From Candidatus Thalassarchaeum sp. (GTDB taxonomy: Archaea; Thermoplasmatota; Poseidoniia; Poseidoniales; Thalassarchaeaceae), in the NCBI GenBank assembly GCA_022449845.1, contig JAKUOE010000005.1:1-34055 (forward strand): a stretch of 34,055 bases of DNA, written 5' to 3'. The number at the start of each line of letters is the position of its first letter. Position 1 is the stretch's first letter. Position numbers and translations under genes: made by a program. This document shows positions 927 through 27,900 of the stretch, in pieces. The notes below the pieces were generated by a model. It saw only the letters and a list, made by a program, of their open reading frames with translations, made no database searches and had not been told where the DNA came from.

Positions 927-2009
927 TCAGTGTACACCCGAGAGGGCCATGATACAACCGAATAAACCGATGATTGGATACGAGGCAAGCGCCACCGTTG
1001 CGCCAATTCCCATCGCTTTTCCACCGCTCGCAGCAAAACCATAGATGATCATTGCGATGGCGGCGAGAGGTGCGGCCATGCACATCAACGACGAGATTAC
1101 TTGCAATGCTTCTAATATGGCCCAGTTGGCATCCGCTTCCTCCATTGCTTCCCGATCATAGGTCTCGACACTGATGTCGAAGGTGTTTCCATGATCTTCC
1201 CCGTCATCATAATGGATGATTCCCGATTGCTGAGTCCAACCTCCGACCGTTTCGCGAATATTGTATTCCATTTCAAATTCTGAGTCGTGGTCTTCACCAT
1301 CATCGAAGTGCAGAACACCCTCGGAGGCATTCCAATGGCCCACTTGTTCTCTATTGTCGTCACCATTGTTCCAAGTCTCCTTGATGATTATGAGTCCACC
1401 ATCTGATTGGGTTTGACAGTCATACCAAGCATCCTCGGAATGCCAATATGGCAACTCACACCAGCCAACTGATTCGTTCTCGTCAAGAGTGAGGTTGGCG
1501 GAGTATGCTGTGCCATTCACGAGAACCAAATCAATCTCATGATCTGTAACTACATAGAGGGTCAAACTAGATTCGTCCGATTCACACTCATACCATTCAT
1601 TTTGCCCTTCATTCTCCTTCACCCAGCAACCCTCAAGGTGTCGGTCTTCAGATATACTGTAATTCGCTGTGTAGGACGTTCCATCGCCCCTTTCCATATC
1701 GATGTTGTCGTATTCATAAACGTCATCGTTCCACGGATCCATGGTGTCTGCAATCATCATTAGAATAATAGGGAGAAGCATGAGGAATAGGGGGACGCCG
1801 AGACCGATGAAGAATTTCTTCCAGATGAAGGGTTCCTTCTGAACCGCATACATTTGACCATCGGGGCCCGTGACATAGTTGTACTCGGCAGAAGCGTCGG
1901 GGGGATTCCCCGATAATGCCTCTACACCGGATAGGGCGCTAGGGGAACCAGTCAAACTAGAGGTGTCCGCAGAAATAATCGGGGAGTCGGGTGCGGACGC
2001 ATCACTCAT
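927..2009 (-). CDS. Acidic membrane protein with an extracytoplasmic internally duplicated domain
   Basis: 360 aa; one N-proximal TM helix and C-terminal hydrophobic helices; Asp/Glu-rich loop with A-A-B-B repeats; overlaps the upstream radical SAM gene by 8 bp. Confidence 0.8.
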   Translation of the reverse strand: MSDASAPDSPIISADTSSLTGSPSALSGVEALSGNPPDASAEYNYVTGPDGQMYAVQKEPFIWKKFFIGLGVPLFLMLLPIILMMIADTMDPWNDDVYEYDNIDMERGDGTSYTANYSISEDRHLEGCWVKENEGQNEWYECESDESSLTLYVVTDHEIDLVLVNGTAYSANLTLDENESVGWCELPYWHSEDAWYDCQTQSDGGLIIIKETWNNGDDNREQVGHWNASEGVLHFDDGEDHDSEFEMEYNIRETVGGWTQQSGIIHYDDGEDHGNTFDISVETYDREAMEEADANWAILEALQVISSLMCMAAPLAAIAMIIYGFAASGGKAMGIGATVALASYPIIGLFGCIMALSGVH

Positions 2010-3504
2010 CGGCGACCTCTCCTTGTGCCATGGGTAAACTGCCCAGTAAATTGCGCTTCTCCTCTGGTGTCAACAGTGCCATGCCTGCCAATGCAAGTTC
2101 ACGACGAATCGGTTCTAGGACCGTTTCTTCCAAATCTCCACGGTAAAACATGTTGAACGTGTCGAATGGAATCAGGCGCAAATCGGGACTGACGATGTGG
2201 ACACAGGTCTTCTTGACGCTGCGGAGATCGAAGGAATGGGCATCGATGAAATCCATGATGATGATGCGGAAGACATTGTCATACGAGAATTCGGTCGGCA
2301 TCTCGAGTTCTGGTAGACAGCACAGCAATTGGGCGAGAGAATGCCCGGCTGAATCGGGGCTGTGCGCAGTGGAAAGCAAATCCAGAATCTTGGCTTTCAA
2401 TTCCTGATCACGCTCAAACTGGATGGTCGAACGAGGTCCTGCGAGCAATGTCTCATCGTCGATATGGCGCGTGAGTGGAACGACGGTCTGACCCATGCGA
2501 AGCCCGTATGCCATGGCAATGGAATCTGGATGACAGGGAACTGGAAGCATGTCCTCAATCTCGAAGGAATCGGATTGTTCGCCAATCATTCGACGGACTT
2601 CGGAAAGTGTCAAGCGATCTTTGGCCATATCGTAATCTTCGTGTCTGCCCGCCTCCTGAATGGGTTGGAAAGTGACACCACGAACACATGTCCAAGACTG
2701 AGCATGCTCAATGATGGTACCAATCTCATGATCGTTGAGTCCCTTCTGTAGCGTCACGACCAGCGTTGTCGATACATTGTGGGCTTCTAGGTTCTCCAAT
2801 GCCCTCTGGCGTACGTCCCGAAGATCTGCACCTCGCAGCCGCATCAACGGTTCTCGCTCAAGACTGTCGAACTGAAGATAGAGTTCGAACCCAGGATTGT
2901 AATCGGCCAATCTAGCGGCGAATTCGGGTTCGTTGGCGATTCGGAGACCGTTGGTGTTGACCATCAGATGCTTGACAGGGCGTTCACGAACTGCATCGAG
3001 AATTTCAAAGAAATTCGGATGAAGGGTGGGCTCGCCACCCGAGATTTGGATGACGTCAGGTTCGAGTTCATTCTCGACGACGGCGTCGAGCATCTCGATG
3101 ATGTGCTCGAGTGTTCGGTAGTCTTCCTTGCGCTCTGGTCCGCTGTCCGCATAGCAAATTGGACACTTGAGGTTGCAATGATCTGTGACCTCGATGAGTG
3201 TCAGGCACGAGTGTTGCTCATGCGAGGGGCAGAGGCCACAATCGTAGGGGCAGCCGTACTTCATCGGCGTGTTCCAGCGTTCGGGCATCTCGCTCGGCTT
3301 GACGTAGACCTCACGGCAGCGACGATAGTAATCCGCATCGTCCGAGATGAGGACCTTTTCGCGCTTCGCACATGAATAGCAGAGTTTGTCCATGTAGACA
3401 TTGTTCTCCTGAATAATGATCTTGCCCTCTGCACGACGCAGACAGTCAGAGCACACGCTGGTGGCAGAATCGTAGAACAGGTAGTCCCGAATCTTGCCGC
3501 TCAT
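2002..3504 (-). CDS. Radical SAM protein of the MJ0619/Tes (GDGT-MAS)-like family
   Basis: N-terminal CSDC...CYSC metal site, auxiliary cluster motif GCPYDCGLCPSH, radical SAM CNLKCPIC, SGGEPTLHP, NTNG, YLQFD and VRGVTFQP; ATGA overlap with the lgt-like gene. Confidence 0.88.
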   Translation of the reverse strand: MSGKIRDYLFYDSATSVCSDCLRRAEGKIIIQENNVYMDKLCYSCAKREKVLISDDADYYRRCREVYVKPSEMPERWNTPMKYGCPYDCGLCPSHEQHSCLTLIEVTDHCNLKCPICYADSGPERKEDYRTLEHIIEMLDAVVENELEPDVIQISGGEPTLHPNFFEILDAVRERPVKHLMVNTNGLRIANEPEFAARLADYNPGFELYLQFDSLEREPLMRLRGADLRDVRQRALENLEAHNVSTTLVVTLQKGLNDHEIGTIIEHAQSWTCVRGVTFQPIQEAGRHEDYDMAKDRLTLSEVRRMIGEQSDSFEIEDMLPVPCHPDSIAMAYGLRMGQTVVPLTRHIDDETLLAGPRSTIQFERDQELKAKILDLLSTAHSPDSAGHSLAQLLCCLPELEMPTEFSYDNVFRIIIMDFIDAHSFDLRSVKKTCVHIVSPDLRLIPFDTFNMFYRGDLEETVLEPIRRELALAGMALLTPEEKRNLLGSLPMAQGEVADE

Positions 3505-4241
3505 GCATTCGTCTGAGGGACATCTTCTATTGAACGTTCACCCGGCTTGCCGTAGGTGAAGAACCACAGCAATCCGAGAACACAGGCCCATTGAATGGGA
3601 GTGAGACCCAGTAATTCGACCGGAGTCGTGTCCTTGATTGAATCCACGATGATGCGCCAGATGAGATACAGCACCATGAACATCTGGAAGCGTTGACCGA
3701 TGAGTGGAGTCTCCCATTTCTCAAGGAATGCCCAGATCGCCCCCAATGCTAGAATTCCATACAATTGAGTCGGATGTCGAGGGCCATCACCGAAATCAAC
3801 ACCCCATGGTAGATCTGTGTGGTATCCATAGGTTGCATCGGGTAGACCTGTCAAGAAGCAACCAATTCGACCGATGGCCATTGAGATGATGAGAGGGGTC
3901 ACGTAGACGTCCCCGGTTCGCACCGTGATTCCGAGGATCTTCTTGGTAATCTCAATCCCAATGGTGCCACCCAACAATCCGCCAACGATGGTCTTCCCAC
4001 CAACGAAAAGAATCGGGACATCAGAACCAATTTGATTTGAATGCTCGAGGAGAGCCAACAATCGAGCACCGAAGAGTGCACCCACCAAGGCAGCGAGAAT
4101 TAACCAGGCCCGATGTTCGCTGTCGACCGTGTCACCATGCAAGCGGCGCTCGCGCATCAGGAATGTGAAACCGGCCACATATCCCAGTAATTCGAAGACC
4201 AGATGGGCAGGAATACCCCAGAAGTCGACAGGGAAGTCCAC
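3501..4241 (-). CDS. Prolipoprotein diacylglyceryl transferase (Lgt)-family membrane protein
   Basis: Multi-TM protein with GGKTIVGGLLGG, IGRIGCFLTG, LPWGVDFGDG and HPTQLY. Start preferred at GTG 4241 (MDFPVDFWG), about 25 bp below a TATA-like box; the ORF track gives 4259. Confidence 0.85.
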   Translation of the reverse strand: MDFPVDFWGIPAHLVFELLGYVAGFTFLMRERRLHGDTVDSEHRAWLILAALVGALFGARLLALLEHSNQIGSDVPILFVGGKTIVGGLLGGTIGIEITKKILGITVRTGDVYVTPLIISMAIGRIGCFLTGLPDATYGYHTDLPWGVDFGDGPRHPTQLYGILALGAIWAFLEKWETPLIGQRFQMFMVLYLIWRIIVDSIKDTTPVELLGLTPIQWACVLGLLWFFTYGKPGERSIEDVPQTNA

Positions 4242-4263
4242 GCCTATCGGTCGGACCACCGGT

Positions 4264-4269
4264 CTTTAA
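4264..4269 (-). promoter_or_regulatory. Putative TATA box (TTAAAG) for the lgt-like / radical SAM operon
   Basis: Lies 23-28 bp upstream of GTG 4241, a spacing consistent with a leaderless archaeal transcript. Confidence 0.4.
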
Positions 4270-4291
4270 CGCTGAGCCGGCATGAATGTAG

Positions 4292-4333
4292 AAAAAGGCC
4301 CGCCAGAGGCACCGAAGCGCCTCTGACGTGCCT
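4292..4333 (-). terminator. GC-rich hairpin with C(UUCG)G loop followed by a U-tract, downstream of the MIP-like gene
   Basis: Minus strand AGGCACGTCAGAGGCGC-TTCG-GTGCCTCTGGCGGGCCT-TTTT: about 16 pairs including G-U, one mismatch, then a T run. Confidence 0.75.
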
Positions 4334-4366
4334 GTGTGTCATCGTGAGGGTTTGCCGAGGTTCGGC

Positions 4367-4963
4367 TCACTCTTCTTCGAATATCTGGTCGCCGAGCATC
4401 AATGCTGCAGCTGCGCCAATACCACCGACGATCATGGTCCCGAAGACCGTGACCATGTTCGCATCTGACCATGCAGATGTGACGATGATGCTGCCGATGC
4501 TGCTCGCTGTGGACAATTCCACGCCTGCGAGGATGAGGACGGCTGCGAAAGCAGCAGAACCCCATGCATCGAGTTTCGTCCAGACTGTCATCAGCAAGAA
4601 GCCGCCGACGAGGGCTGTAACCACATCGGGCATAGCCATGTCTGCTGCTCCACCGGTGGCCAATCCCGAGACATCCATGCCCCAGTACAGTACACCAGCA
4701 CCGATGAGGGCACCGAGAACCTGCATTGCAAAGTTCGATGCACCTGTTTCCCAGTCGGTTTCACCCGCAGCCATGCGGCCAATCGTGATTATTGGCAAAA
4801 TCTCGGATCCCTTGAAGGTCATCCACATGATTGCCAGAGTGACACCTGCGACTCCTGCAGCTGCTGCAGACCCGTGTTCACTTGTGCCTGCCCAATCTCC
4901 GAAAACCAGTAGCGTAACCGCCAAACTGCCGATGAGTTCACCCATCATTCCTTTTTCGTTCAT
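4367..4963 (-). CDS. Divergent MIP/aquaporin-fold membrane protein lacking NPA motifs
   Basis: GELIGS (helix 1 Glu), KGSEILPIITIG in place of SGxHxNPAVT, and QVLGALIGAGVLY match the first MIP half; the second half is degenerate. Confidence 0.7.
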   Translation of the reverse strand: MNEKGMMGELIGSLAVTLLVFGDWAGTSEHGSAAAAGVAGVTLAIMWMTFKGSEILPIITIGRMAAGETDWETGASNFAMQVLGALIGAGVLYWGMDVSGLATGGAADMAMPDVVTALVGGFLLMTVWTKLDAWGSAAFAAVLILAGVELSTASSIGSIIVTSAWSDANMVTVFGTMIVGGIGAAAALMLGDQIFEEE

Positions 4964-12717: not shown

Positions 12718-12789
12718 TGCGGACGACGGGATTTGAACCCGTGACATGAGGTTGGAAACCTCAGGTGATAACCCCTTCACTACATCCGC
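12718..12789 (-). tRNA. tRNA-Gly (anticodon TCC), intronless, CCA not encoded
   Basis: GCGGATG/CGTCCGC acceptor stem, GTGA/TCAC D stem, TGAGG-TTTCCAA-CCTCA anticodon arm, ACGGG-TTCAAAT-CCCGT T arm and discriminator A. Confidence 0.95.
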
Positions 12790-13868: not shown

Positions 13869-16800
13869 TTATTTCTCCTTTCTATTGAGGTTGAATCTCA
13901 ATTCCTCAGGGACCGGAGCCATACCTTTGAGACGGAGGCCTCGAAGTGACACCAGAGGTTTCTGATTTCGATCGAACACCATCGCATCATGAATCGTGAT
14001 TCCGTCGCTCTCCTGTCCACGACGGTAGCTTCGAACTCGCAAATCATCACGTAGAGAGGGAATCTTCAGAATCTCGCATTCCTCAATTCCAATTGGTAGG
14101 CTCGACAGATTGTCCACTTCCATTGCAACCAAACCTGCATTCTGGAAGCAAGCCTCAATGAGAAGTGGTAATGATTCCAGAAGCACAGGTTCTTCCTCAA
14201 ATAATTGTGAATTCGGGAGTTGACTGCGGAGCAGGGCAATTCCATCAGCACCCAAATTATCTCCGTCCGATACACCCTTGATGAGTGCACCATGGACCTG
14301 GAAGCGCGGTCCATGGAAGAAGCGGTCGTAAACGAAACTCGGTTGGAATGAGGCCTTGCCCTTTCCAGGTAGATCCGTGAAAGCCATCGGTGAATCTCTC
14401 TGAGCACCCTCCTTGAGTAAACGAACCATGGCCTGATGATGGACGAGAGGTTCCCCGAATATCTCTCCTTTCGAATTCACAAGATCACTTTCAAGATGGC
14501 ACTGGATGAACAGGGAATTGTGATCTTGTCCACTGAATTGAGCCCGGACACGAACACGGGCTTCCTCTTTCATCAATTTGATTGGAAGACCAAATTGAAC
14601 ATCGGAGAATCCCTCCAAATTGCACATCGGATAAAGCAACAGAGAACTCTGAGCAAACATTTCCATTGCCATCACACCAGGGTGGTAGGGGGTGCCTTCA
14701 ATCGAATGATCAATGAGGAAAGGGAATCTTTCAGAAGAGAGTGTGCACTCTGTGATAATCTCGGAATACGGTTCGTGTGTGATGATTCGATCGACGAAGG
14801 GGAAGCGCTCGGGTTCAGCGAGGGCTCCAGCGGTATCGGTCGGAAATTTCTGAGGCGGAGCGCGCTTGCAATTCTCATCATCTAGGATGCCTAAGGCACC
14901 TGCAACAACCACGCGACGTTTCCCTCCAGAAAGCATCTCTTGTACGAACAAATCGACTCCTGTTTCAACCGGAATCATCTCAATCCCGGCTTGCTCAAAC
15001 ACAGATTCGACCGAACCTCGAGTTGCCATGCCTACATCACTCCAACCCGACCACGCAATTGCAACCGCACGAGGGGCATCTTCGTGATGTGCAATGCGGC
15101 ACATTTCAGCATCGAGAATGTTGTTAGCAGCTGCATAATCGACTTGGCCGCCGTTTCCGAATCTGCCCGCGATTGAGGTGAAGGCACAGAGAACGCGTAA
15201 CTGGTCGATTTCATCGCCTAAAGCGTCCACTAAAGCCCTCCAACCATCAATTTTCACAGATATTACCGATGAGAATGTCTGCCATGATTTGTCTCCAACG
15301 AGTTTGGAATCTTCAAGGCCTGCACCGTGTACAAGTCCAGTGATTGTGCCGCATTCCTTCCCCACCGCTGTGATTACCTTGGAGACGGAGCGAGAATTCG
15401 TGACATCGCAGGCATCGTACAAAGCACGGTTGCCCGTCGCATGAATGTCCCGCATCGTTCGATGAATCTCCAGACTGCGCAGTTGTTTGTTCCACTCACG
15501 ATCCCATTCGACCATGGTGACTTTCCCCGAATCACTCTGAGAAATCATGTCCTCACGAAGTTCCATCTTACGTGCTTGCAAAGTGGATTCATCGTCTTCT
15601 AGCCATTCCTCGATAGAAGAATCAAGACGGGTGCGACCAAGAAGAATGAAGGTTGCACCGACGTTTTGACTCGCCTCTGCAACGCCAACGATACACCGTG
15701 CTGTGACACCTGAACCCCCTCCAGATATGACCCATACATCATCATTCTGAAGGGATTGAATTTCGTCGGTAAGATCTTCCTCATACAAACATAGAGTCCA
15801 GCGATTTCCGTCTCGTGACAAACCTACTTCTAGAGGTGAATTTCGGCCAAACGCCTCAGCCCATATCTGATGAGCGAGGGCGGTGGGGTCCGACAGGAGT
15901 TCGGGATCCACGTCGATGGCGCGGCAACGCAAATGTGGCTGTTCCTTGGCATATGACTTGACGATACCATGGGAACCGGCCGCGAGGGCGTTGAAACGGC
16001 TACCAGCATTGCCATGGCGACCATCCATTGCGCTGACAGACATGATTGTGCCGTCGGCAATTGAACTGAAGTGGGAATCCAGGGATTTCAGTAATCCAAA
16101 CAAACCATGTGTCGTCGATGTGAGGTGAGCCTGCTGTGTCTCACTTTCCCAACCCACACCTGCAAGACGGAGAGGGGCGAGGTGGAGAAGTGCGGCAACA
16201 TCACCAATTCTTGCGAGATGAGAACTGACTTCAGCCAATTGATCATGATTGCCGGGGTCGACACGAATGATGTCGACGGGACCGTCCTTCTCAATCTTGA
16301 TTTTGGAGACAATACTGGGGTCTAGCATGATTCGGACGGTGTCGATACCAGCAGCTTCCAGAATATGACACAATGTGTCTGCAACACCCCACGGGTCGTC
16401 GGTTACTGCGATAACCCTGCCATCGATATCAAGTGGAGTATTGGCTTCAGGAGGAATCGCCTCCGCCTCAACCTGCCACCGTCGGACGCCAAGAGATTCT
16501 GGTTGGATGGAAGGAGTTGGTGGATCAGGTTCAGAGATGATTGGTGGGGCTTCTATGGATTCAGGAGGGTCAGAATGTGATTCATCCTGACCCAAATATG
16601 CAATCATATGATTGAGAGTCGGGTGCTCACTCAAAACGAAAGATTCGTCCACCGGTAATCCGTAGAAATCACGGAGTTCAGCCATAATTTCGGCCTGCTT
16701 CACTGTGTCAATTCCGAGTTCACCCTCAAGATCCTGATCCAATTCGATGAAATCTTCAGGGTATCCAGTGTGTTTGACCACAACCTCGACCACTTTCGCA

Positions 16801-19800
16801 GCAACATCACCAGAGATTGGAGCCGTTGACAGTTGAACAACTTCCTCTTCCACAATGGGTTCAGGCTCGGGAAGAGGGATATCTTCTTGTTTTGAAGGAG
16901 AGGATTTAGGGGGAGAGAATGTGGACCAAGTAGTTCCCTGAACACCACCAATTATTTTCTCATCCGGATTGATATAAGCGACAAGTTGTCGGTTGAGAAT
17001 ACGCAGATCCACATCTCCATCACTCGCTTTACTCGCCCAGATGGCTACGTGTTCCCGATCCACGCGATCGAGGTTCGTAGCCATGCGCTTGACCATCGTG
17101 AACGCCATTTGCGAGCCAAATCCAGCGGCATGTCGAACGACGTACTCAACATCCACAGGACCTCCAGTTGACAGGCGGAGATGGCCCAATTCCGGATCGG
17201 GTTCCTTGAAATTCGCGATGGGGGGGAATTCACCCTGACACAGACCGCGAATCGAGACCGCATCTTCGATTCCAGTTCCCATCGGGTGACCTGTGAATCC
17301 CTTCGTGTTCGTGATGATAATCTCCGATGCGCTGTCACCAAAGGTTCTGCGAAGAGCCTGAATCTCCGCTGATGCCGAGCCCCCACGTGGTGGAGTGGCT
17401 GGTTCATGGGACATGAAGGAGGTTCGGGCGGCGATTGTATGACGATTCAGGCCCCAATTCTCTTCCATTTTCGCGATGAAGGTCTCCAACGAATCCGAGA
17501 CATGGTCAACATCTAGGCGGGTTGGGTGGAAGGCTGAATTGGCAAGATGTGTGCCGAGAAGTTCAGCATAGGGTGTAACCCCACGCTCCATTGCTAAACT
17601 GTGACGTTCGAGGACGAATGCGGCCGCACCCATCCCGAGGAGCATGCCATTTCGACGGGCATCGAAGGGGACACTGACTTCATCGACAACATTGCCCATT
17701 GCATGAGCGCCTGCGGCAGCGAAGCCAGCACCAATCCACGTCATCAATTCATCACTGGTTGAATCATCGGCACTGACGATGATGACTCGGTCGCAACGAC
17801 CTGTAGCCAACCAATCTTCTGCGATGGCGATTGCAGAGGGTGTCGAGGCGCAGGCATTGTTGACGGAAGCATTGGGTCCCCGTGCCCCAATCCATTGAGC
17901 AAATTGCGAATGACCCATGGTGAGAATCTGCAGTAGGAAGCGCCGGTCGAAATTGCCATCCTCATCCGCTCCATTGTTCTGCGCGTGCCGCATCGCTTGA
18001 TCGATTCCAGGGAAGCATGAGGCGAAGAGGACACCGGTACGGTCCCTCTCTGAGTCGGGCAAATGCCAATGTTGAATCAAACGCTTACCGGCTTTGTTAA
18101 TCTGTTCAACAGCCAGCAATGGTAAGCCTGCGTCCTTGAGTGCTTCAAGCCCAGCAGCCAGAGCGAGAGAGGTTGTGATATCCATCGCTTCGACAATCTT
18201 CGGATCCAAGCCATACTGTTCGGCCAAATCGAAGTGGCCCCGCCGCCCTGCTAGTTGAGGAATCAAGGTGAAATCATCACAAGGAACGAATTCGGCAGAA
18301 CCATCGGGGTGTTTGATAATTCGAACTAGATTTCGATCGAGGAGGCGTTGTTTGACGTCATCAGAAAGTTCGGAAATGAAATTCTCTCCACGGATTATCC
18401 GATCCAATGCATCGGGTGAGAATACCTCCTCCATTCCAGGCAATCCAAGGCTGAGTCCACTGAATACATAGGGGTCTCTGCGCCGAGCAGAAAGCGGATC
18501 TTCCGAGGTATGTATTCGCCGGTCGCTGAGGGTCTGAACTGAGATAGAATGGCCTTGTGGAACCTCAGCCAACCATTCGACGAGGCCTGGCAGTGTTGTT
18601 GCATTTGTACTGCCTTTGACTTGGTATTTGGACTGAATTTTCTGATGAATCTCTGATATCTGTACATCATTCAATCCGATTGTAAGCAAATCTGTCGAGC
18701 CGTGAATCATTCGTACAGGGAAGCCACTAACATCAGATACGATTCTTGCAATCGCAGACTCCTTGGACATCCGGTTGGCTTCATCCTGCTCCTCTTCAGT
18801 CATCACTGAAACCGGTGGAGGTGAGGAAGTGGGTGGTGCCGCTGGAATGACATGAGTCGGGGTAGATGTTCGGACACCGGCTCGGAAAGCCTCAGTGAGA
18901 ATGTCACTATTTGCATCCGGAATCTGCGGTATGCGGCCGGATAGCGCATGCAGTGCGAGAGCAGCATGGAAGGAGGCAATGCCGCCAACCTTGGGATGAT
19001 TGGTATTGGCGATAATCTTCGGTCGATCTTCAAATATCTGTTCGGCAAAGAGAGCTAGGGCTCGCTTGGGGCCAACTTCGATGAACATGCGAGCCCCGCC
19101 CTCGTACATCGTCTCCATCTGCTGTGTCCATTCGACGGCGGAAGCCATCTGTGGAGCGAGTTTGGCCAATATTGCTTGCTTGGCACTGCTGCCTGCTGGA
19201 GCGACATTCGGGTACCAACCGCCATCGAAATTCGAGGTGATTGGAATATTCGGCAATCGAATATCCAAACCCTCAAGGAAAGCGCGCAATGGTTCGTTCG
19301 CTGGGGCTACGATTCTGGAATGGAATGCATGACTGGTTTGTAGTTGTACACAGGAGACTCCGGCGTCATCGAAAGCCTTCATCACCCGCTTCATCGGTTC
19401 GGTCTCTCCGGCAATGACGGTCATTTTCGGACTGTTCTTGTTGGCGGCAATGACGTAACCATCTTCTGCTTCCAACACGGCTTCAATCTGTTCATAGGGA
19501 GCGGAGACTGAAGCCATGATTCCAGTGTCCTGGACCTCGACGTTGCCCATCTCAGTACCTCGTGCTGCGACGGCACGAAGAGCCGAGTCGAAATCGAGAA
19601 TGTCTGCAACCATCAGGGCCGCATACTCCCCCAGTGAATGGCCAGCAACCATGTCGGGTTCAAGTCCGTGCGCCTTGAGGAGACGATGGATGCCGAGGTC
19701 GGCCGTGAGCATCGCGGGTTGTGTGTACTCTGTTTGTTTGAGTTTGAATTCTGCATCTTTCTTCTCATCCTCAGTCAGATTCTCTCGAAGCACGAAGGAG

Positions 19801-19985
19801 GACAGAGTTTCACCTTCGAGAACTTCAATCATGGTCTGATCCGCTTCATCCCAAGTCTCTCCAATACAACGATACCGTTTGGAGAGGTCAAGGGTCATGC
19901 CGACATACTGGCTACCCTGCCCTGGATAGAGTTGAGCAACCTTGGCCTGTTCGGGCAATGGTGCAGTGTCGGTAATCATGACCAT
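13869..19985 (-). CDS. Type I FAS/PKS megasynthase, C-terminal part: AT-(degenerate ACP)-KS2-ACP-KR-DH
   Basis: AT: YPGQGSQ, GHSLGE, SHAFHS. KS2: NACAS, [68 protein letters not shown]. Same frame as 20160-21812. Confidence 0.92.
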   Translation of the reverse strand: [2038 protein letters not shown]

Positions 19986-20159
19986 CTGTTTGGCGAGAAA
20001 ATCCCATTTCGAACGATCGTCAATAGACTTCTCAAGTAGATCAAAACGCTTTGCGAGTTGAAACCAATCGCTGGCGACAATTGCGCATCTGACACCTTCA
20101 GCAATGTATCCTTTACTCGCCTGTGGAAGAACGATGGAGAGACGCTTTCCATGAGGGTC

Positions 20160-21812
20160 TTAATCGAAATTCGAACCACTGAAAAGTTCAGCCCTTATGG
20201 AGGAAAGTTTGGCGGTTAGTGCTTCCAAATCGGGAGCGTTGACCAACAGGACGCCGCCTTCAATCTCCTTCAATTCAGCGTGTGAGAAAGTGGCTGTTGA
20301 TGAGAGTGTAGTTTGCGCAGAAGTCCCCGGGTTCAACCAAGCATTGCGACGGGTGTCGAACTCGTTGGCGAGAAGGGAATGGAAATCTCGATCGTAAGCT
20401 TCCAGTGCACAATGGAAATTCGTCCCTCCAAAACCGAAGGAAGAGACGCCAGCGCGGCGAGGGTGTCCGTTTGGAGCCAACCACGATTTGGGTTCAGTGG
20501 GAACATAGAATGGATTCGTTTCCCAATCGATGTTCTCGTTCGGTGTGGAAAATCCGGCACTTGGAGGAATCGTGCCTGTTTCAACTGCCCGAATCGCCTT
20601 GACAAGGCCGGCAATTCCGGCGGCGGCCTTGAGATGACCGATTTGACTCTTGATTGAACCCACGGCGACGTTGTCGCCCGGAGGTGTGTTGGTAAATGCG
20701 GCAGAGAGACTGGTCAACTCTGTTGCATCACCGACGACTGTGGAGGTCCCATGAGCTTCGATTAATTCGACTGTCGAAGAATCGTAACCAGCCTGCATGT
20801 ATGCCCGACTTACCGCTTGAATCTGGCCGCGGGTGCTCGGTGCAGTGATGCCTTTACCGCGACCATCACTACTCGCACCCACTCCACGGATCACCGCTTG
20901 AATGGAGTCGCCATCACGAATCGCATCGGAGAGTCGTTTCAATGCGAGGGCGCCCGACCCCTCACCCATGACAAAACCGTTCGCCTGAGAATCGAAGGGT
21001 GTTGAATGCGTGGCTGAAAGTGCGCCAATGGCGCTGAATTTTGCAAATGTAGCTGGATCCATGGTTCGATCGCTAGCGCCTGCAATCATCATGTCCACTT
21101 GGCGTGTCTGTAGTAGCCTGCAAGCGTCTAGAATGGCAGCAAAGGTGGATGCACAAGCAGCATCCGTGGAATAATTCGGACCTTGAAGGTCGAGGAGGTT
21201 GGCGACCCTACCAGCCACAACATTCGCGAGTTCGCCTGGCATTGTATCCTCAGTGACAAGGGGGAGGCCGTCGAGAATCGCGTCCTTGAACGCCGCCTTT
21301 CCTTCACTCGGCATCCCTCCCGCCTCGACAGCGTGACGTGCGAACTGATCAGCCCACACACGATGATTGGTCAGATTTCGATTCTCTCCTCCTAGAGCAT
21401 TTGCGAAGATTACACCGGTCCGCTCCCGAGGTAATTCACGGGCTCCTTCACCCATGTATCCTGCATCTTCCAAAGCGGCTGCACTGACGGTGACTGCCCA
21501 CTGTTGTGTTGGATCAATTTGAGGAAGAGAACCAGGGGGGATTCGCCAGCGGCGCCAATCAAATTCAAAATTTTCAACCCATCCACCAATCTTTGAGTAG
21601 GTCTTGTTCTCATCGACATTCTTTGGTCCCCCCTCAACCCAGAAATCAGAAGATACCCATCTGTTTTCGGGAACCTCCTTGAGTGAGACATGAGCAGACA
21701 AGATATTCGCCCAGAATGTTTGAAGATTCGGTGCATCGGGCAACAGAGTCCCGACACCGATTACGGCAATCGGTTCAAACGGATCCTGTGGATGTTCGTC
21801 AGGGATTGTCAA
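20160..21812 (-). CDS. Type I FAS/PKS megasynthase, N-terminal ketosynthase (KS1, PfaA-like); continues in frame past one TAA into 13869-19985
   Basis: EPIAVIG, IDPTQ, TDAACAS (Cys), EAHGTST, GSIKSQIGHLK and GVSSFGFGGTNFH. TTG start with a GAGGCGA SD; 58 open codons link the stop to the next ORF. Confidence 0.92.
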   Translation of the reverse strand: MTIPDEHPQDPFEPIAVIGVGTLLPDAPNLQTFWANILSAHVSLKEVPENRWVSSDFWVEGGPKNVDENKTYSKIGGWVENFEFDWRRWRIPPGSLPQIDPTQQWAVTVSAAALEDAGYMGEGARELPRERTGVIFANALGGENRNLTNHRVWADQFARHAVEAGGMPSEGKAAFKDAILDGLPLVTEDTMPGELANVVAGRVANLLDLQGPNYSTDAACASTFAAILDACRLLQTRQVDMMIAGASDRTMDPATFAKFSAIGALSATHSTPFDSQANGFVMGEGSGALALKRLSDAIRDGDSIQAVIRGVGASSDGRGKGITAPSTRGQIQAVSRAYMQAGYDSSTVELIEAHGTSTVVGDATELTSLSAAFTNTPPGDNVAVGSIKSQIGHLKAAAGIAGLVKAIRAVETGTIPPSAGFSTPNENIDWETNPFYVPTEPKSWLAPNGHPRRAGVSSFGFGGTNFHCALEAYDRDFHSLLANEFDTRRNAWLNPGTSAQTTLSSTATFSHAELKEIEGGVLLVNAPDLEALTAKLSSIRAELFSGSNFD

Positions 21813-21821
21813 TATCTCGCC

Positions 21822-22613
21822 TCAGTCACTGATGCTATCTGGAACCATCGTGCTGGAGTATCCAGCATCGACGTGAATCACTTGTCCTGTCACGCCGGAA
21901 CCTAGCGGGCTTGAAAGCCAAACTGCACAACCGGCAACATCGTCTTGGTTGACATTGCGGCGCAGAGGAGAATTGCGTTCGACATGATCCAATATGTCGT
22001 CGAAACCAGGGATGCCGCTCGCAGCCAAGGTTCGAATCGGACCAGATGAAATGGCGTTGACACGATGGCCGTCCTCACCGACTCGCATCGCCAATTCTCG
22101 AACCCATGCCTCAAGGGCGGCCTTGGCGATGCTCATGACACCATAATTGGGGACATAACGAGTGCTCGCAGCATAGGTGAGGGTGATCGTCGATGAATTC
22201 TCTGCTAGATGGGGCAAGGCATGACGCATGACACGTTGAAGAGAATGGGCGGAAATCGTCATCGCGATATTGAGGGGTTCATCTTCAACGAATAGCATGT
22301 GTCGATCAAAACATTCGCTCGGTGCGAAACCAATCGCATGGATGATGATGTCTGCCTTTGAACCGGGCGCTGCCTTCTGCCATTCCTGGAAAAATTCCGC
22401 TGTTGTCTCTTCAGAACCGACATCGATAGGATAGAATGCCTCGATGGCCGAAAGTTTGTCTTTGAGTTGGAAAACACGGCTCATGAATCGCTTCTGATAT
22501 CCAAGGATGAGTTTGCATCCGGCTTGCGCCAATCGATTGCAAATTGCCCAGGCAATTGAATCCTCAGATGCAACACCAAACACCAGTGCAGTTTTTCCTT
22601 CAAGTTGCAACAT
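21822..22613 (-). CDS. fabI: Enoyl-ACP reductase (FabI-type SDR)
   Basis: GVASEDSIAWAI, HAIGFAP, ISAHS, TLTY, PNYGVMSIAKAALE (YxxMxxxK), RVNAISSGPIRTLAASGI and VTGQVIHVDAG. Confidence 0.95.
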   Translation of the reverse strand: MLQLEGKTALVFGVASEDSIAWAICNRLAQAGCKLILGYQKRFMSRVFQLKDKLSAIEAFYPIDVGSEETTAEFFQEWQKAAPGSKADIIIHAIGFAPSECFDRHMLFVEDEPLNIAMTISAHSLQRVMRHALPHLAENSSTITLTYAASTRYVPNYGVMSIAKAALEAWVRELAMRVGEDGHRVNAISSGPIRTLAASGIPGFDDILDHVERNSPLRRNVNQDDVAGCAVWLSSPLGSGVTGQVIHVDAGYSSTMVPDSISD

Positions 22614-23591: not shown

Positions 23592-24103
23592 CCCAGTAGA
23601 TTCTCATCGGAAAGTCGCTGCTTCCATCGACGAGCCGCCATTGAAACCAATTTTCCATGGCGGGCTTCAGTTGCAATACCTCGACCGTTGCGGAACAATA
23701 GCATCTGAATTTCATGGCGTGTGTCATTGATTCTAAGACAATCCAATTCTGCATCCATGACAGCTTCGGGATACAAATCTGGTACACCTTCGAGAGAAAT
23801 GGACGACTCAAAATCGAATGATGCGACCACAGGGCCGACCTCAAAGGACATCCCAGATTCATCCTCACCCATTCGCAAGAGAACCTCTTTTGCCGCAAGA
23901 TGAGCGAGGTCCTGTTTTCGACAACCGTGGACAATGATACGACCATCTTGATCGACCAAGAGGGTTGCACGTGGGGCGACCAGAGAGAGGGTGACATATC
24001 GGCCACTTCGCTTCCCTCCAATCTCATCGACAACCCGCTGTGGGTCGATGGGTGTAGCAGGGGTGAATCGGAACAATTGATTCTCAACGCGTGATTCCGT
24101 CAA
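23588..24103 (-). CDS. Highly divergent TATA-binding-protein (TBP)-fold protein
   Basis: 171 aa with two TBP-like half-repeats (RVEN...IDPQRV...PRATLLVDQDGRIIVHGCRK; VVASFDFESSISLE...MLLFRNGRGIATEAR); 4-bp overlaps with both neighbours. Confidence 0.65.
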   Translation of the reverse strand: MTESRVENQLFRFTPATPIDPQRVVDEIGGKRSGRYVTLSLVAPRATLLVDQDGRIIVHGCRKQDLAHLAAKEVLLRMGEDESGMSFEVGPVVASFDFESSISLEGVPDLYPEAVMDAELDCLRINDTRHEIQMLLFRNGRGIATEARHGKLVSMAARRWKQRLSDENLLG

Positions 24104-24918
24104 CTTCTCTCCTCCTCAACATGTTCTGGTAATGGGGAACTCTCCAGTGCGGAATGGATGTCGGGCATCCAAGCCTGCATGACTGGCACGAGGAGCACAG
24201 GTGTGCCCGTATCATCAACCTGTCCCCCACAAAGTGTTCCCAATGCTCCTCGAAGGCGTGATGCAAGACGCTGGTCTCTTCGTAAACGAAGTTCCTCATT
24301 GAGTACGGATTCCGAACGATACCACCATGCTGCTGCAAGTGCACTGGCCTGAGCGAGACCATGCGCCTTGGCATCATCTCTCTCACAATCGGGTGGCCCC
24401 GTTTGGTGCATGGCCTCACGTAGTGTACGCTTCCAAGCCCGTCCACTGAAGATAGAGCGAGTCAGGTTTCGTAAACGCACCATCTCATCTGCACAATCTT
24501 CGACCCATTCAGTCCATTCTTCATCCTCGGGTTCGACAAAGAATACTGGACGAGTACCTTTGCCCGAGGGGCTCTCAGCTGCCTGCAACAGGCGACGAGG
24601 TTCTGGATCAGGGAAACGACAGGTTTGGATTGACTCGATAGCGGATTGACCCATCATCATTCTCGCCAGTGTTCCACCACTTGCTGAGATAGAATCTCGA
24701 TTAATTCCAGGGGATGCCTTCTCTTGTTCTGCTTGGTCATTCCAAACTTCGGGCTCGTCATCCGGAAGAAGGAAGGCGAGTCCATCCCACTTTCCAACTG
24801 ATCGACGAAGAGAATCCGTCAACACAACGTTGGGCAAGAACGGCCACAGGCGAATGACTCCGCCACAGGGATCCTCCCATTCGACTGGCGACCAACTCAA
24901 GGGCGCCGAATCGGTCAT
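24100..24918 (-). CDS. Hypothetical protein
   Basis: 272-aa ORF with a GAGGTTG SD, tightly packed in the operon; no motif recognised. Confidence 0.8.
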   Translation of the reverse strand: MTDSAPLSWSPVEWEDPCGGVIRLWPFLPNVVLTDSLRRSVGKWDGLAFLLPDDEPEVWNDQAEQEKASPGINRDSISASGGTLARMMMGQSAIESIQTCRFPDPEPRRLLQAAESPSGKGTRPVFFVEPEDEEWTEWVEDCADEMVRLRNLTRSIFSGRAWKRTLREAMHQTGPPDCERDDAKAHGLAQASALAAAWWYRSESVLNEELRLRRDQRLASRLRGALGTLCGGQVDDTGTPVLLVPVMQAWMPDIHSALESSPLPEHVEEERS

Positions 24919-24927
24919 GGTTCAACC

Positions 24928-27900
24928 TCATTCTTGGCTGGCGAGCCACTCTTCGAGTTGCTCAACATTCCAGCCTTGATCGAAGTAGCCCTGAATCGTC
25001 GCCTCATCCCAGAACGGGAATTTCTCCTTGGCGATGTCCATCGGGCTCTTCGCAGCCGCAGGTGGGCCACGTGAAGCACCAGGTGGACCACGTCGGTCAC
25101 CGGCTCGGGTCGCGGGTGGACCCCGACTTCGCATCGGTTCAACGGCCTGGGCGGCTGGGAGGAAATCATCTTCCTCGATGTATTCGAGTTCATCGTCCTC
25201 AACGGTTCGGTTGAGAACGAGCAGTACGATGACGACAGCGACGATGAGGAGGGCAACGATGCCAGCAATACCAACGAGCAGCATGGTGTTCCCACCTTCA
25301 TCACTTTCAGCGAACTTCGCAACATTGAACGAATCGATAGAAGCGATTTCTTGATTATTCATGTCCAAAATAACGTAACTGACATTGATTGCCGCATTCG
25401 GGAATTGATCCATCGAAATTCGCCAACGTGTATCTTCTCCAGGTTGTACACTGAACGGACAAGTGTAAGTGACTGGGGAACTGGCTTCATCGCCAATCCA
25501 TGTCACGATTTGAATCTCCAGAACACCTTCCTTGTTGCCATCATTCTGGAAGTCAATCAACAGATCAAAGTCTGTCTGAGCCATGGGTTTGTCGACCGAC
25601 ATATCGACCCGACTGATGGTGAACTGTGCAGACTCATACGCCAACTCATAGGTACCTGCACCACTGTTGACTGAGGTTCCAAAGGAACCCGCGCCACCGA
25701 TGGTTTGTCCAGATGAATCATAACCAGTCAACCAGAATTTGACAATCACATTGTCCATGTCCTCAGGAATGGGTTGTGTTGAGGGCCATAGATCGAAACA
25801 AGTGGATGTCGCCCGAATCTGACCTTGTGACGATTCAAGGTACAGTGGAGTGCTTTCCCAACCTTCACCGTCTTCAAATGTGTTCAGATATTCAGTCCAG
25901 TTATACTCGAATCCACCGACTTCCTGTGTCTTATAGAACATCCAGTTCAATGAAACAGAATCCGTATCCATGCCTTGTAATTCGTCAATGAGAACCTCTG
26001 CATCGAGACAATTCATGACCGATGAAGAGATGCTCCCTTCTAACGTCTCACCCGTCACAGAATTCGAAAGATCCCACGACCCGAACACTGTGTCAGGCCT
26101 GTCACCATCGACCTTCACGATGAATGAACGCGATGGGGCAGGCGTATTGTCAACTGCACCATTGGGCAGACCGAGCAATTCCAATGTGTAACTGTACTCA
26201 TTGGTAGCATATGCTGCGGGCACCACCAATTGGAAAGAACCGTTCTCAAAGTCGTATTCGTTCACTTCGACCAGTGCGGGTGAATAACCACTGTCGGGCA
26301 AACCAGCTGGATAGAGAGGGGAGCGAGTGACCTGCAGACTGAGAGGAATCTCGGGGCTGACGAAGATCAAATCATTCATCCCTGCGCTGAACACATATCG
26401 GCCTTCAATGACCAAGATGTCGCCTTGATAGACGAAGCCACCAGATGCTGTGCCGACGCCGTCGGTCGGGAACCCGGAGGTGTCCTCAACAGAGAAAGTC
26501 GTTGTATCGAGTTCAATTCCACTCGAGTACGACCATCGCTGTGGATTTCGAGAGGCACTGATGTGGACCTCGTTGTTGTTCAAATCCTTGTCCTTCATTG
26601 CGATATCTGGTGTCTTCACACCACCGACGTAGCCAATGGGTATAGCCCACTCCATTCGAATTGGTACATCGAGGGTGAATTGCTGTTCGAAGGGTGAAAT
26701 CAAGATATTTCCTTCGCGCGTCAGCATGCGTGGTTTGATTCCTGTATTTTCATAATCATCTAGAATTTCAATCCAGGTGCTTTCAGTCCATGCCGTGTCA
26801 TTCTGTGGTGAATAGAACATCTGGATACAACCCTCTGGGTCGTAGGATGCTCCGGCTTCGTTGCAGATTTGTGGATTGAGGGTGATGGTAATCGTCTCAA
26901 CATCCTGCCAACCGTTGTCATCCTTTCCATCGACCAGCAAGTGATACACGTTGCCAGCGTAAAGGGACCGATTGTTTTCATTCAACATCGTGCCATGCGA
27001 ATCCGAGATTCGGAAGGCTTCGACAAGAGGTGTGCGGCTTTCCATCGCAATGTAGGTGACCGTGTCCGCGTTGATTCCAGGTCCACCGCCATCGATTTGA
27101 TTGCCACCGATGTCTGAACCGGAGACGAATAGACTGACCATCTGAGGTGGATCGATTCCACTGTTGGCATAATCACTGATACATTCACACGGATGATCAA
27201 TGAGGTAGTATGAGGTGTCCGCTTCAGTTTGACGTGCAAGGGTCATCTGCGAATACTCGTTCAGTTGTGCTTCTCGGTCCATCTCGCCCGTATCGGGCGC
27301 AACGTATGAGGGTACACCTGGACAGAGGCCGTCGAGTCCACAGTCATCCGATGCCTCGACCCAATAATTGAGGGTCAGAGTCTCGGGGGCGAGAGGTAGG
27401 TCCTGAGCAGCCACTCGGAATTTCTGGTTGTTACTCGCCTTCACCCAAGTGTCGTCAGTGAGTTCTCGCCAATCGCCCTGCACACTGTACACGGAGATAT
27501 TCATCAGATGAGGTGAGAAGGGGTCCAATGTGATTGTGAATCGAATCGCACAGTCACTGTCTGGATTGAAACTCTCAGGAGGACAGAGCAAATCGCCATC
27601 GGTGTAATTGTGAATCAACAATCGATACTGTTCCACACCAGCCTCTGATGCTGGAAGATTTGGTTGCCATGAATAATCGCCATCGATGGTCGCAGGTGTG
27701 GAATCCACAAACAACCAATCTTCAAACATGATTTCGGATTGGTTCCGCTTCTCCAACTTGACCGTGTAACTGTTCGGATTTGGAGCAACATCCAGATCTT
27801 CGTATCGAACATTGAAGTCCAGTGTAATCGTGTTGCTTGAGAAGGCATTGGTCAAATCAGTCTGTTCAACACCACCTTGGTTGAAGAGGGTGAAGTCGGT

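Follow-up and report, generated by a model that had tools for sequence, protein, structure and literature searches.

A bacterial-type Lgt-partnered radical SAM gene in a marine Poseidoniales genome and a membrane-protein cysteine that tracks the pair

The stretch of DNA analyzed here (the window: 34,055 nucleotides, positions 1 to 34,055 of contig JAKUOE010000005.1 in assembly GCA_022449845.1) comes from Candidatus Thalassarchaeum sp., a member of the Poseidoniales in Marine Group II, and carries near one end three overlapping genes: one for a relative of the lipid transferase Lgt, one for an enzyme of the radical S-adenosylmethionine (SAM) type and one for a membrane protein (Table 1). The radical SAM protein resembles Tes, or GDGT-MAS (MJ0619; PDB 7TOL and 7TOM), the enzyme that couples lipid tails carbon to carbon in forming glycerol dialkyl glycerol tetraethers (GDGTs). 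An original prediction, made from the letters of the DNA, described the first two genes as a horizontally acquired module that modifies or transfers lipids.

Table 1. Coordinates of the module and of the other features discussed, in window positions (ORF, open reading frame; PKS, polyketide synthase; FAS, fatty acid synthase; KS, ketosynthase).
Feature	Position	Strand	Size	Basis or remark
Lgt-like gene	3501-4241 from GTG at 4241, or 3501-4259 from first GTG	minus	246 aa or 252 aa	ORF list
Radical SAM gene	2002-3504	minus	500 aa	ORF list
ATGA overlap, Lgt-like stop and radical SAM start	3501-3504	minus		read in sequence
Third gene, membrane protein	927-2009	minus	360 aa	overlaps radical SAM stop by 8 nt
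GC-rich 12-bp hairpin with U-run	4289-4346	minus		between MIP-like gene stop and Lgt-like start
Aquaporin Z-like gene	162-887	minus		MIP family
Divergent MIP-like gene	4367-4963	minus	198 aa	MIP family
PKS/FAS cluster	13869-22613			present in window
KS ORF of the PKS	20160-21812	minus		
AT-ACP-KR-DH ORF of the PKS	13869-19985	minus	2038 aa	
Long ORF	24928-30807	minus	1959 aa	
Next ORF	24100-24918	minus	272 aa	

Coupling of the two enzyme genes through an ATGA overlap, as the original prediction had it, is seen directly in the sequence at 3504-3501. The prediction also placed the end of the Lgt-like gene at 4241, in agreement with the likelier of its two GTG starts: homologs are 246-248 aa long and open with a conserved M-x-F-P-V, which favors 4241 over 4259. 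What escaped it was the third gene, which overlaps the radical SAM stop and encodes the cysteine that tracks the pair. Upstream of the Lgt-like gene lies a hairpin (-39.7 kcal/mol, z -3.0) that, by its sequence, looks like a terminator marking the upstream edge of the unit. The hairpin and its U-run form a GC-rich element of 55-64 nt (4283-4346 in the window) with further copies at 78-93% identity in the same genome (C1:8061-8115) and on contigs of the genomes G233, G273 and G105; probably it is a small repeat or a terminator-like element that these genomes share. Rfam has no match for it, the sole Rfam match in the window being a tRNA at 12718-12789. Two MIP-family genes flank the module, the divergent one scoring below the Pfam cut-off, and both stay put in same-genus genomes that do not have the pair. 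Two studies contributed four metatranscriptome contigs, all short (155-204 nt) and at least 95% alike, that map onto the module at 2064-2335, at 3421-3578, across the ATGA junction, and at 4068-4219; they attest presence in RNA libraries only, and not a transcript, its ends or co-transcription. The GC content of the module (0.52) is no different from that of the window, and composition is therefore uninformative on transfer.

The radical SAM protein matches Radical_SAM and Zn_ribbon_HMPTM in Pfam, and its translation contains every motif that had been listed for it: C18xxC21...C42xxC45, GC85PYDC89GLC92PSH95EQHSC100, C110xxxC114xxC117, KKTC434VH and IPFD448TFN. Its best NCBIfam matches stay below the curated cut-offs, at 302.3 bits for TrsS (NF045646; cut-off 490), along residues 14-452, and 264.3 bits for Tes (NF045702; cut-off 450). 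When whole genomes were scanned, the Tes profile gave the window gene 226.7 bits, again under 450, and true Tes of the same phylum, Thermoplasmatota, 475-691 bits; the profile scan of the window's genome, which is 81% complete, found no second Tes-like gene.

Where the protein parts from Tes became apparent in a residue alignment of 33 rows, with 21 rows from the family, 4 each from true Tes and TrsS, and 4 from further Tes-like proteins of Thermoplasmatota. The N-terminal metal-site residues are invariant throughout, except at position 45: a rubredoxin-like CX2CX20CX2(H/C) site (C18, C21, C42 and C45, the last being His in bacteria), the [4Fe-4S]N site (C85, C89, C92 and H95) and the radical SAM core (C110, C114 and C117), with ligands named as for GDGT-MAS (PMC9433317). 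The original prediction took this N-terminal set to mark tail-to-tail coupling, which goes too far, because Tes, TrsS and other Tes-like clades all have it; alone it is therefore no proof of such coupling. Positions 433 and 448, by contrast, are both Cys in all 12 rows outside the family (Tes, TrsS and other Tes-like), whereas in 21 of the 21 family rows the first is Thr or Ser and the second Asp, bearing out the suggestion that IPFD in place of IPFC is a clade marker. Aligned around the labile Met439 of GDGT-MAS, whose equivalent is kept in the window protein, the two Tes cysteines are the putative ligands of the [4Fe-4S]C cluster. A check of these C-terminal ligands had been proposed: C433 and C448 are replaced throughout the family, and their role as ligands is one that we infer from the alignment. 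Position 437, the equivalent of Tyr459 in GDGT-MAS, is Tyr in 4/4 true Tes and Ile in 21/21 family rows; Tyr459 is reported as strictly conserved among 1,000 homologs from archaea (PMC9433317). The family has cysteines of its own, an invariant C395-C396 and C434 plus C100, and the C-terminal cysteine set of the window protein is rewired to C324, C395, C396 and C434.

For all these replacements the fold is that of GDGT-MAS, the only close solved structure, which sequence comparison finds in two stretches (E 1.9e-64). With the AlphaFold model (predicted local distance difference test, pLDDT, 82.6; low confidence at residues 356-398) as query, the top Foldseek match is 7TOL, GDGT-MAS with lipid bound (E 5.9e-35), with template-modeling (TM) scores of 0.75/0.76 over about 510 columns at 28% identity, that is, along the whole chain. 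Second-tier matches in both sequence and structure, SkfB and SuiB, cover the radical SAM core only (TM 0.33-0.35), and Pfam and NCBIfam scans gave no match to a SPASM/twitch domain or a recognition domain for ribosomally synthesized and post-translationally modified peptides (RiPPs). The protein thus has the whole GDGT-MAS fold, with the rubredoxin-like site, the N-terminal CX3CX2C...H, the core CX3CX2C and the Met439 equivalent, yet it is not Tes, since it falls below the cut-offs and has T, D and I in place of cysteines 433/448 and the Tyr; C395-C396, C434 and C100 are found instead.

The partner protein belongs without question to Pfam LGT (PF01790; 83 bits, cut-off 24.9) and fails to reach TIGR00544, the equivalog of housekeeping Lgt (33 bits against a cut-off of 118.9). 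A phmmer search of the PDB with this single sequence gave no match; a family profile found E. coli Lgt only (5AZB; E 5.5e-14), and for the predicted structure (pLDDT 82.4) 5AZB is likewise the only Foldseek match at E <= 0.001 (E 3.1e-5, TM 0.52). The altered motifs noted at the outset, GRIGC134F and H162PTQLYG, are indeed there, although the G that ends the second is limited to the marine-archaeal subclade, most bacterial members having E. Four pocket residues of E. coli Lgt—R143, H196, Y235 and R239—correspond to R131, H162, Y198 and R202 and are invariant in 22 rows; E243 corresponds to D206, at a position that is acidic (D or E) across the family, and R246 to K209, an invariant Lys. Other positions are lost: H103 is V92, so that HGGL reads VGGL, Y26 is H19, and N146 is C134, an invariant Cys. 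In E. coli Lgt, R143 and R239 are essential, and substitutions of R143, H103A/N/Q/R/Y and Y26A/F/Q all inactivate the enzyme (PMC4728403). With the donor pocket kept and the proposed peptide-binding HGGL site lost, the protein is therefore a paralog with altered specificity, about 40 residues shorter than Lgt, and not a housekeeping Lgt. Canonical Lgt (240-290 bits) is encoded elsewhere in 4 of the 5 bacterial carrier genomes checked, the module copy there scoring 28-50 bits.

The two genes belong together well beyond this genome. Protein searches return marine-archaeal relatives at 70-97% identity and then a very large set of proteins of about 470-480 aa, which show 60-66% identity and come from Paenibacillus, Planctomycetota, Acidobacteriota, Myxococcota, Proteobacteria and others; public loci of Poseidoniales are nearest, at 93-97% identity. 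Loci were compared for the best 80 of 579 relatives among 600 pattern matches in a collection of species genomes: 12 marine-archaeal loci, 1 from a metagenome-assembled genome (MAG) of the Halobacteriales and 67 bacterial. In 73 of the 80, the same strand has an Lgt-like ORF upstream, a pairing that is therefore not due to chance; among the 7 exceptions, 4 have less than 410 nt of upstream DNA and 2 others have a second radical SAM gene there. The two genes are separated by a gap of 260-1364 nt in 13 loci, mostly of Acidobacteriota, and neighbor clustering over the 80 loci found no other broadly conserved neighbor gene. Some Lgt-like ORFs of high-GC genomes seem extended at the N-terminus; fused Cys proteins were considered, but the extensions look like ORF-calling artifacts.

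Nature has also fused the two. When 1.84 billion representatives were searched with a profile of the Lgt paralog, 498 clusters (50% identity) reached E <= 1e-30, and one among the best 150 of them is a 733-aa protein that combines LGT, Zn-ribbon and Radical_SAM domains with the family motifs; no fusion was found in a search of proteins of 876-2500 aa or among 120 matches listed near the length of the query. The radical SAM domain of the fusion follows the last Lgt helix, and the C-terminal end of E. coli Lgt is said, from work by Pailler et al. in 2012, to be cytoplasmic. Two variant arrangements deserve mention: in two loci of Thermoanaerobaculia (L054:4848-6008 and L062:1610-2770) a different radical SAM gene, of 386 aa, stands directly upstream of the Tes-like gene, and in a sister lineage from another Thermoplasmatota family (L101, G372:C35) the Lgt-like gene is located downstream, about 1.2 kb from the radical SAM gene.

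Known relatives lack this partnership. The Tes and Tes-like loci of Thermoplasmatota that we fetched have no Lgt-like partner, save two that group with the Lgt-partnered family. TrsS is similar to the window protein in length and architecture and also has C100, but it keeps C433 and C448, which the window protein does not, and none of 10 TrsS loci has an Lgt-like gene within a distance of about 1.5 kb; the neighbors checked there encode a DVU_1556-type methyltransferase, the C_GCAxxG_C_C protein DVU_1555 and the AMP-ligase DVU_1553. TrsS exceeds its cut-off in 12 of 201 Bacillota genomes.

Phylogeny had been suggested as a test of where the gene came from. In an IQ-TREE analysis (LG+C20, SH-aLRT support) of 64 of 107 radical SAM sequences, bacterial near-duplicates having been thinned, all Lgt-partnered sequences fall on one long branch (100), with true Tes placed far away from it (98). 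All 12 rows of marine archaea group together (98) in a clade nested among bacterial rows; it adjoins Proteobacteria plus a Holophagaceae sequence with a support of 90, which is not strong. A sequence from Halobacteriales and one from another Thermoplasmatota family make up a separate archaeal clade (98) among Acidobacteriota. As read from these sequences, the tree accords with bacteria-to-archaea transfer on at least two occasions and does not single out a donor. The original prediction stands on both counts here: the gene sits on the bacterial branch and not with archaeal Tes (60-66% identity to bacterial proteins versus 28% to GDGT-MAS), and the nesting of the marine-archaeal clade in bacteria supports horizontal acquisition of the pair.

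The distribution of the gene is patchy. Relatives outside Poseidoniales are mostly bacterial, plus a few other archaeal MAGs. Tes itself exceeds its cut-off in 71 of 151 Thermoplasmatota genomes and in 0 of the Poseidoniales genomes searched. The radical SAM gene occurs in 25 of 301 Poseidoniales genomes (6 of 66 that are high-quality, 9 of 26 genera) and, the window's genome aside, in 11 of 16 of the window's genus. Two same-genus genomes without the pair have collinear flanks and about 220 bp in place of window positions 1875-4307, so the pair is a discrete unit of presence or absence. We regard it as close to certain that the gene belongs to an Lgt-partnered bacterial family, was acquired by transfer and is not Tes.

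The third gene brings a possible substrate into view. Its product has an N-terminal helix, an acidic outer domain of about 210 aa and two C-terminal helices, the last of which contains a cysteine (..LFGC..); proteins of this kind match no Pfam or NCBIfam family. Elsewhere in the related loci, an ORF downstream of the radical SAM gene opens near its stop, typically with an overlap of 4 or 8 nt, and ends in a Cys-bearing hydrophobic helix, the Cys sitting 4-14 residues from the C-terminus. Of the 74 loci that offer room (300 nt or more), 41 have such a Cys-tailed neighbor (10/10 of the marine-archaeal ones), and in one more it lies between the two genes; two further matches to the Cys-tail filter were spurious. 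Typical tails read LVAACFG in Proteobacteria, LNAACFG in Bacillota and FFGC in the window's relatives. Ahead of the last helix is a basic loop, and the segment therefore resembles an internal lipoprotein signal peptide. One locus (L148, G291:C22) has two tandem third-gene paralogs (265 and 213 aa) downstream of its radical SAM gene, each with a Cys-bearing last helix.

Within Poseidoniales the cysteine can be followed with and without the pair, as homologs of the third gene occur in 34 of 301 genomes, many of which do not have the pair. Among orthologs with a readable C-terminus (two are cut off by contig ends), the last-helix Cys is present in 11 of 11 that lie beside the pair and in 0 of 16 from genomes without it. 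The Cys is likewise found in a twelfth ortholog, which comes from a carrier genome and sits on a contig fragment, and one weak homolog among the pair-less has a Cys seven residues earlier. Same-genus genomes without the pair keep the third gene, with Thr-Met or Leu-Ala replacing Gly-Cys. In a tree of 27 third proteins, pair and Cys switch at the same three places; in one genome of another genus, the third gene is sister to a same-genus copy that has no Cys (94), whereas the radical SAM gene of that genome nests in the window's genus. This co-variation of cysteine and pair, together with the clean indel, is what is new here.

How might such a module work? The chemistry outlined here is a candidate, drawn from sequence and predicted structures. 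The two genes form the core of a membrane module of bacterial origin that some Poseidoniales acquired horizontally, and it is likely that the two enzymes work on a lipid as a unit. The best-supported reading is that three parts together lipid-modify the cysteine of the third protein; we hold its chances to be even, and we would put the chances that this cysteine is the target neither above nor below half. On this reading the Lgt paralog, with the Arg-Arg-acid-Tyr-His glycerolipid-donor pocket of E. coli Lgt that it keeps, would transfer a glycerolipid unit to the third-protein cysteine at the outer membrane face. The radical SAM enzyme, on the cytoplasmic side, would abstract hydrogen from an unactivated carbon of the lipid tail, and the C-C or C-S bond then formed would yield a specially lipid-linked membrane protein. 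The candidate acceptor would differ from that of Lgt by its place, which is a polytopic protein's C-terminal end instead of an N-terminal signal peptide. A bolder version, which we think rather unlikely, is a new protein lipidation, in which the Lgt paralog S-alkylates the Cys at the outer end of the C-terminal helix (a "reverse lipobox") and the radical SAM enzyme welds the tail to a second lipid or to the third protein itself; this protein would then be tethered via a membrane-spanning or cross-linked lipid. A known parallel is AliA/AliB of Haloferax (PMC12462473), lipoprotein biogenesis proteins that have to do with attaching lipid to a cysteine in membrane proteins of archaea; they are not detectable members of PF01790, whereas the window protein is one, as a diverged paralog of bacterial derivation.

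Several observations speak against modification of the third protein. With His103, Tyr26 and Asn146 gone from the Lgt paralog, Lgt chemistry may not occur, if the alignment is a guide, and no match to Lsp (PF01252) was found in the window's genome, at 81% completeness. Scored by eye, 15 of 30 tails from bacteria and 1 of 10 from marine archaea have a strict lipobox. The filter found no Cys-tailed neighbor in 30 of the 74 loci, including all Comamonadaceae and many Acidobacteriota. Third proteins from archaea and from bacteria share only 5-27% identity in their last 75 residues, and homology between them is therefore not established. Judged by the trees, the link between cysteine and pair comes down to 3 independent contrasts, of which 1 is on strongly supported branches; this number is too small for a test, relatives are not independent, and we make no statistical claim for it. 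Finally, residues 356-398 of the radical SAM protein, adjoining the family-specific CC, may be less reliable than the rest, as the model has low confidence there.

The alternative that survives best, and which we hold to be a tentative possibility, is that the pair modifies bulk membrane lipid. The Lgt paralog would bind or present a phospholipid, the radical SAM enzyme would couple or modify fatty-acyl or isoprenoid tails to give, for example, membrane-spanning or branched lipids, and the third protein would be only a scaffold or regulator. Such a reading sits comfortably with a fold shared end to end with GDGT-MAS and with the 30 of 74 loci that have room for a Cys-tailed neighbor and none in it. 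It does not account for a cysteine that tracks the pair, 11/11 versus 0/16, nor for the replacement, in 21/21 family rows, of the putative [4Fe-4S]C ligand cysteines, the cluster of C-C coupling in Tes. The family is, moreover, common in Paenibacillus, Rhodanobacteraceae and Comamonadaceae, groups that are not known for spanning lipids. Acidobacteriota cut both ways: the family occurs in this phylum, which is a source of branched tetraethers (PMC8941075), but Tes homologs were reported in just 3 of 14 acidobacteria that produce iso-diabolic acid (PMC13159169). In favor of the bulk-lipid reading, GDGT-MAS itself acts on free lipids and binds bacterial phospholipids (PMC9433317).

A second alternative, which we consider improbable, turns the radical SAM enzyme into a peptide maturase that would install a thioether or cross-link on the Cys tail of the third protein in RiPP-like fashion, with the Lgt paralog as dock or exporter. 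The target-like position of the Cys near the C-terminus and the second-tier matches to peptide maturases, SkfB and SuiB, lend it some appeal. Those matches are confined to the core, however, with TM scores less than half the 0.75 obtained for GDGT-MAS, no SPASM/twitch or RiPP-recognition domain was matched, and the invariant lipid-pocket residues point to an Lgt paralog that is catalytic.

That the gene encodes a true GDGT or macrocyclic archaeol synthase, such that these members of Marine Group II make GDGTs, is very hard to credit. Fold and all three N-terminal metal sites are those of GDGT-MAS, and some databases label relatives "tetraether lipid synthase." Yet the protein scores under the curated cut-off, which none of the Poseidoniales searched exceeds and close to half of the Thermoplasmatota do; two invariant C-terminal cysteines and a conserved Tyr are missing; the nearest relatives outside Poseidoniales are mostly bacterial; and a mere 25 of 301 Poseidoniales genomes carry the gene. 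Halobacterial homologs, too, occur in strains that have no GDGTs (PMC8941075). The gene does not encode a GDGT synthase, and it provides no evidence that Marine Group II makes tetraethers.

The proposal that what the neighboring PKS/FAS makes is tailored or transferred by the module, part of the original prediction, can be set aside as highly improbable and largely refuted by distribution: both lie in one 34-kb window and their spacing of about 18-20 kb repeats in four same-genus genomes, but housekeeping genes intervene, the two are on different contigs in other genera, no KS match was obtained in 6 of 25 carriers, the pair is missing from 178 of 197 KS-positive genomes, and no PKS neighbor is common to the bacterial loci. 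The genes between module and PKS are those for Fpg, fibrillarin, Nop56/58, TFS, PCNA, a glycosyltransferase and an ABC transporter. The window is archaeal by its content of Nop56/58, fibrillarin, TFS and PCNA, as well as a TBP-like gene. A KS ortholog is present in 197 of 301 Poseidoniales genomes (65%) and in 19 of the 25 carriers of the pair, the 6 carriers with no match belonging to two genera, and it is only in the window's genus that module and PKS keep their spacing on one contig. The PKS of the window is itself split by a single in-frame TAA (20160-20162, minus strand) into a KS ORF and an AT-ACP-KR-DH ORF, which share one frame and are contiguous from stop to stop; same-genus KS open frames run to about 2650-2770 aa, and the TAA may reflect a nonsense mutation, an error of sequencing or read-through. 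Beyond it, the 1959-aa ORF and the 272-aa ORF next to it have no Pfam match at E <= 1e-4.

A literature search found no published description of an Lgt-like and Tes-like pair. In the portions available, neither the GDGT-MAS paper nor a review from 2026 on radical SAM enzymes that modify lipids mentions Lgt, and both state that bacterial homologs of Tes exist and nothing further. Earlier reports gain a putative explanation. A single weak match among 231 MAGs of Marine Group II (PMC8941075) would be accounted for by a bacterial-type family present in 25 of 301 genomes, and family membership likewise accounts for the halobacterial "Tes homologs" of that paper in strains without GDGTs. No archaeal homolog of Lgt had been identified as of 2025, according to PMC12462473; contrary to that statement, the module supplies a bona fide PF01790 protein in archaea.

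Taken for what it is, the sole Tes-like gene of Marine Group II now has a settled identity: it is of bacterial type, does not have the C-terminal site of Tes, is present in about one in twelve genomes, and is unusable as an argument that Marine Group II contributes GDGTs to the tetraether index TEX86. The family as a whole forms a widespread module in which two lipid enzymes of known chemistry are paired, and this predicts an undescribed lipid or lipoprotein product. The co-variation of cysteine and pair offers a concrete and cheap experimental handle on it. Should the new kind of lipidation outlined above prove true, the module would be the first demonstration of an Lgt-family enzyme at work in an archaeon, acting on a resident archaeal membrane protein that gained an acceptor cysteine.

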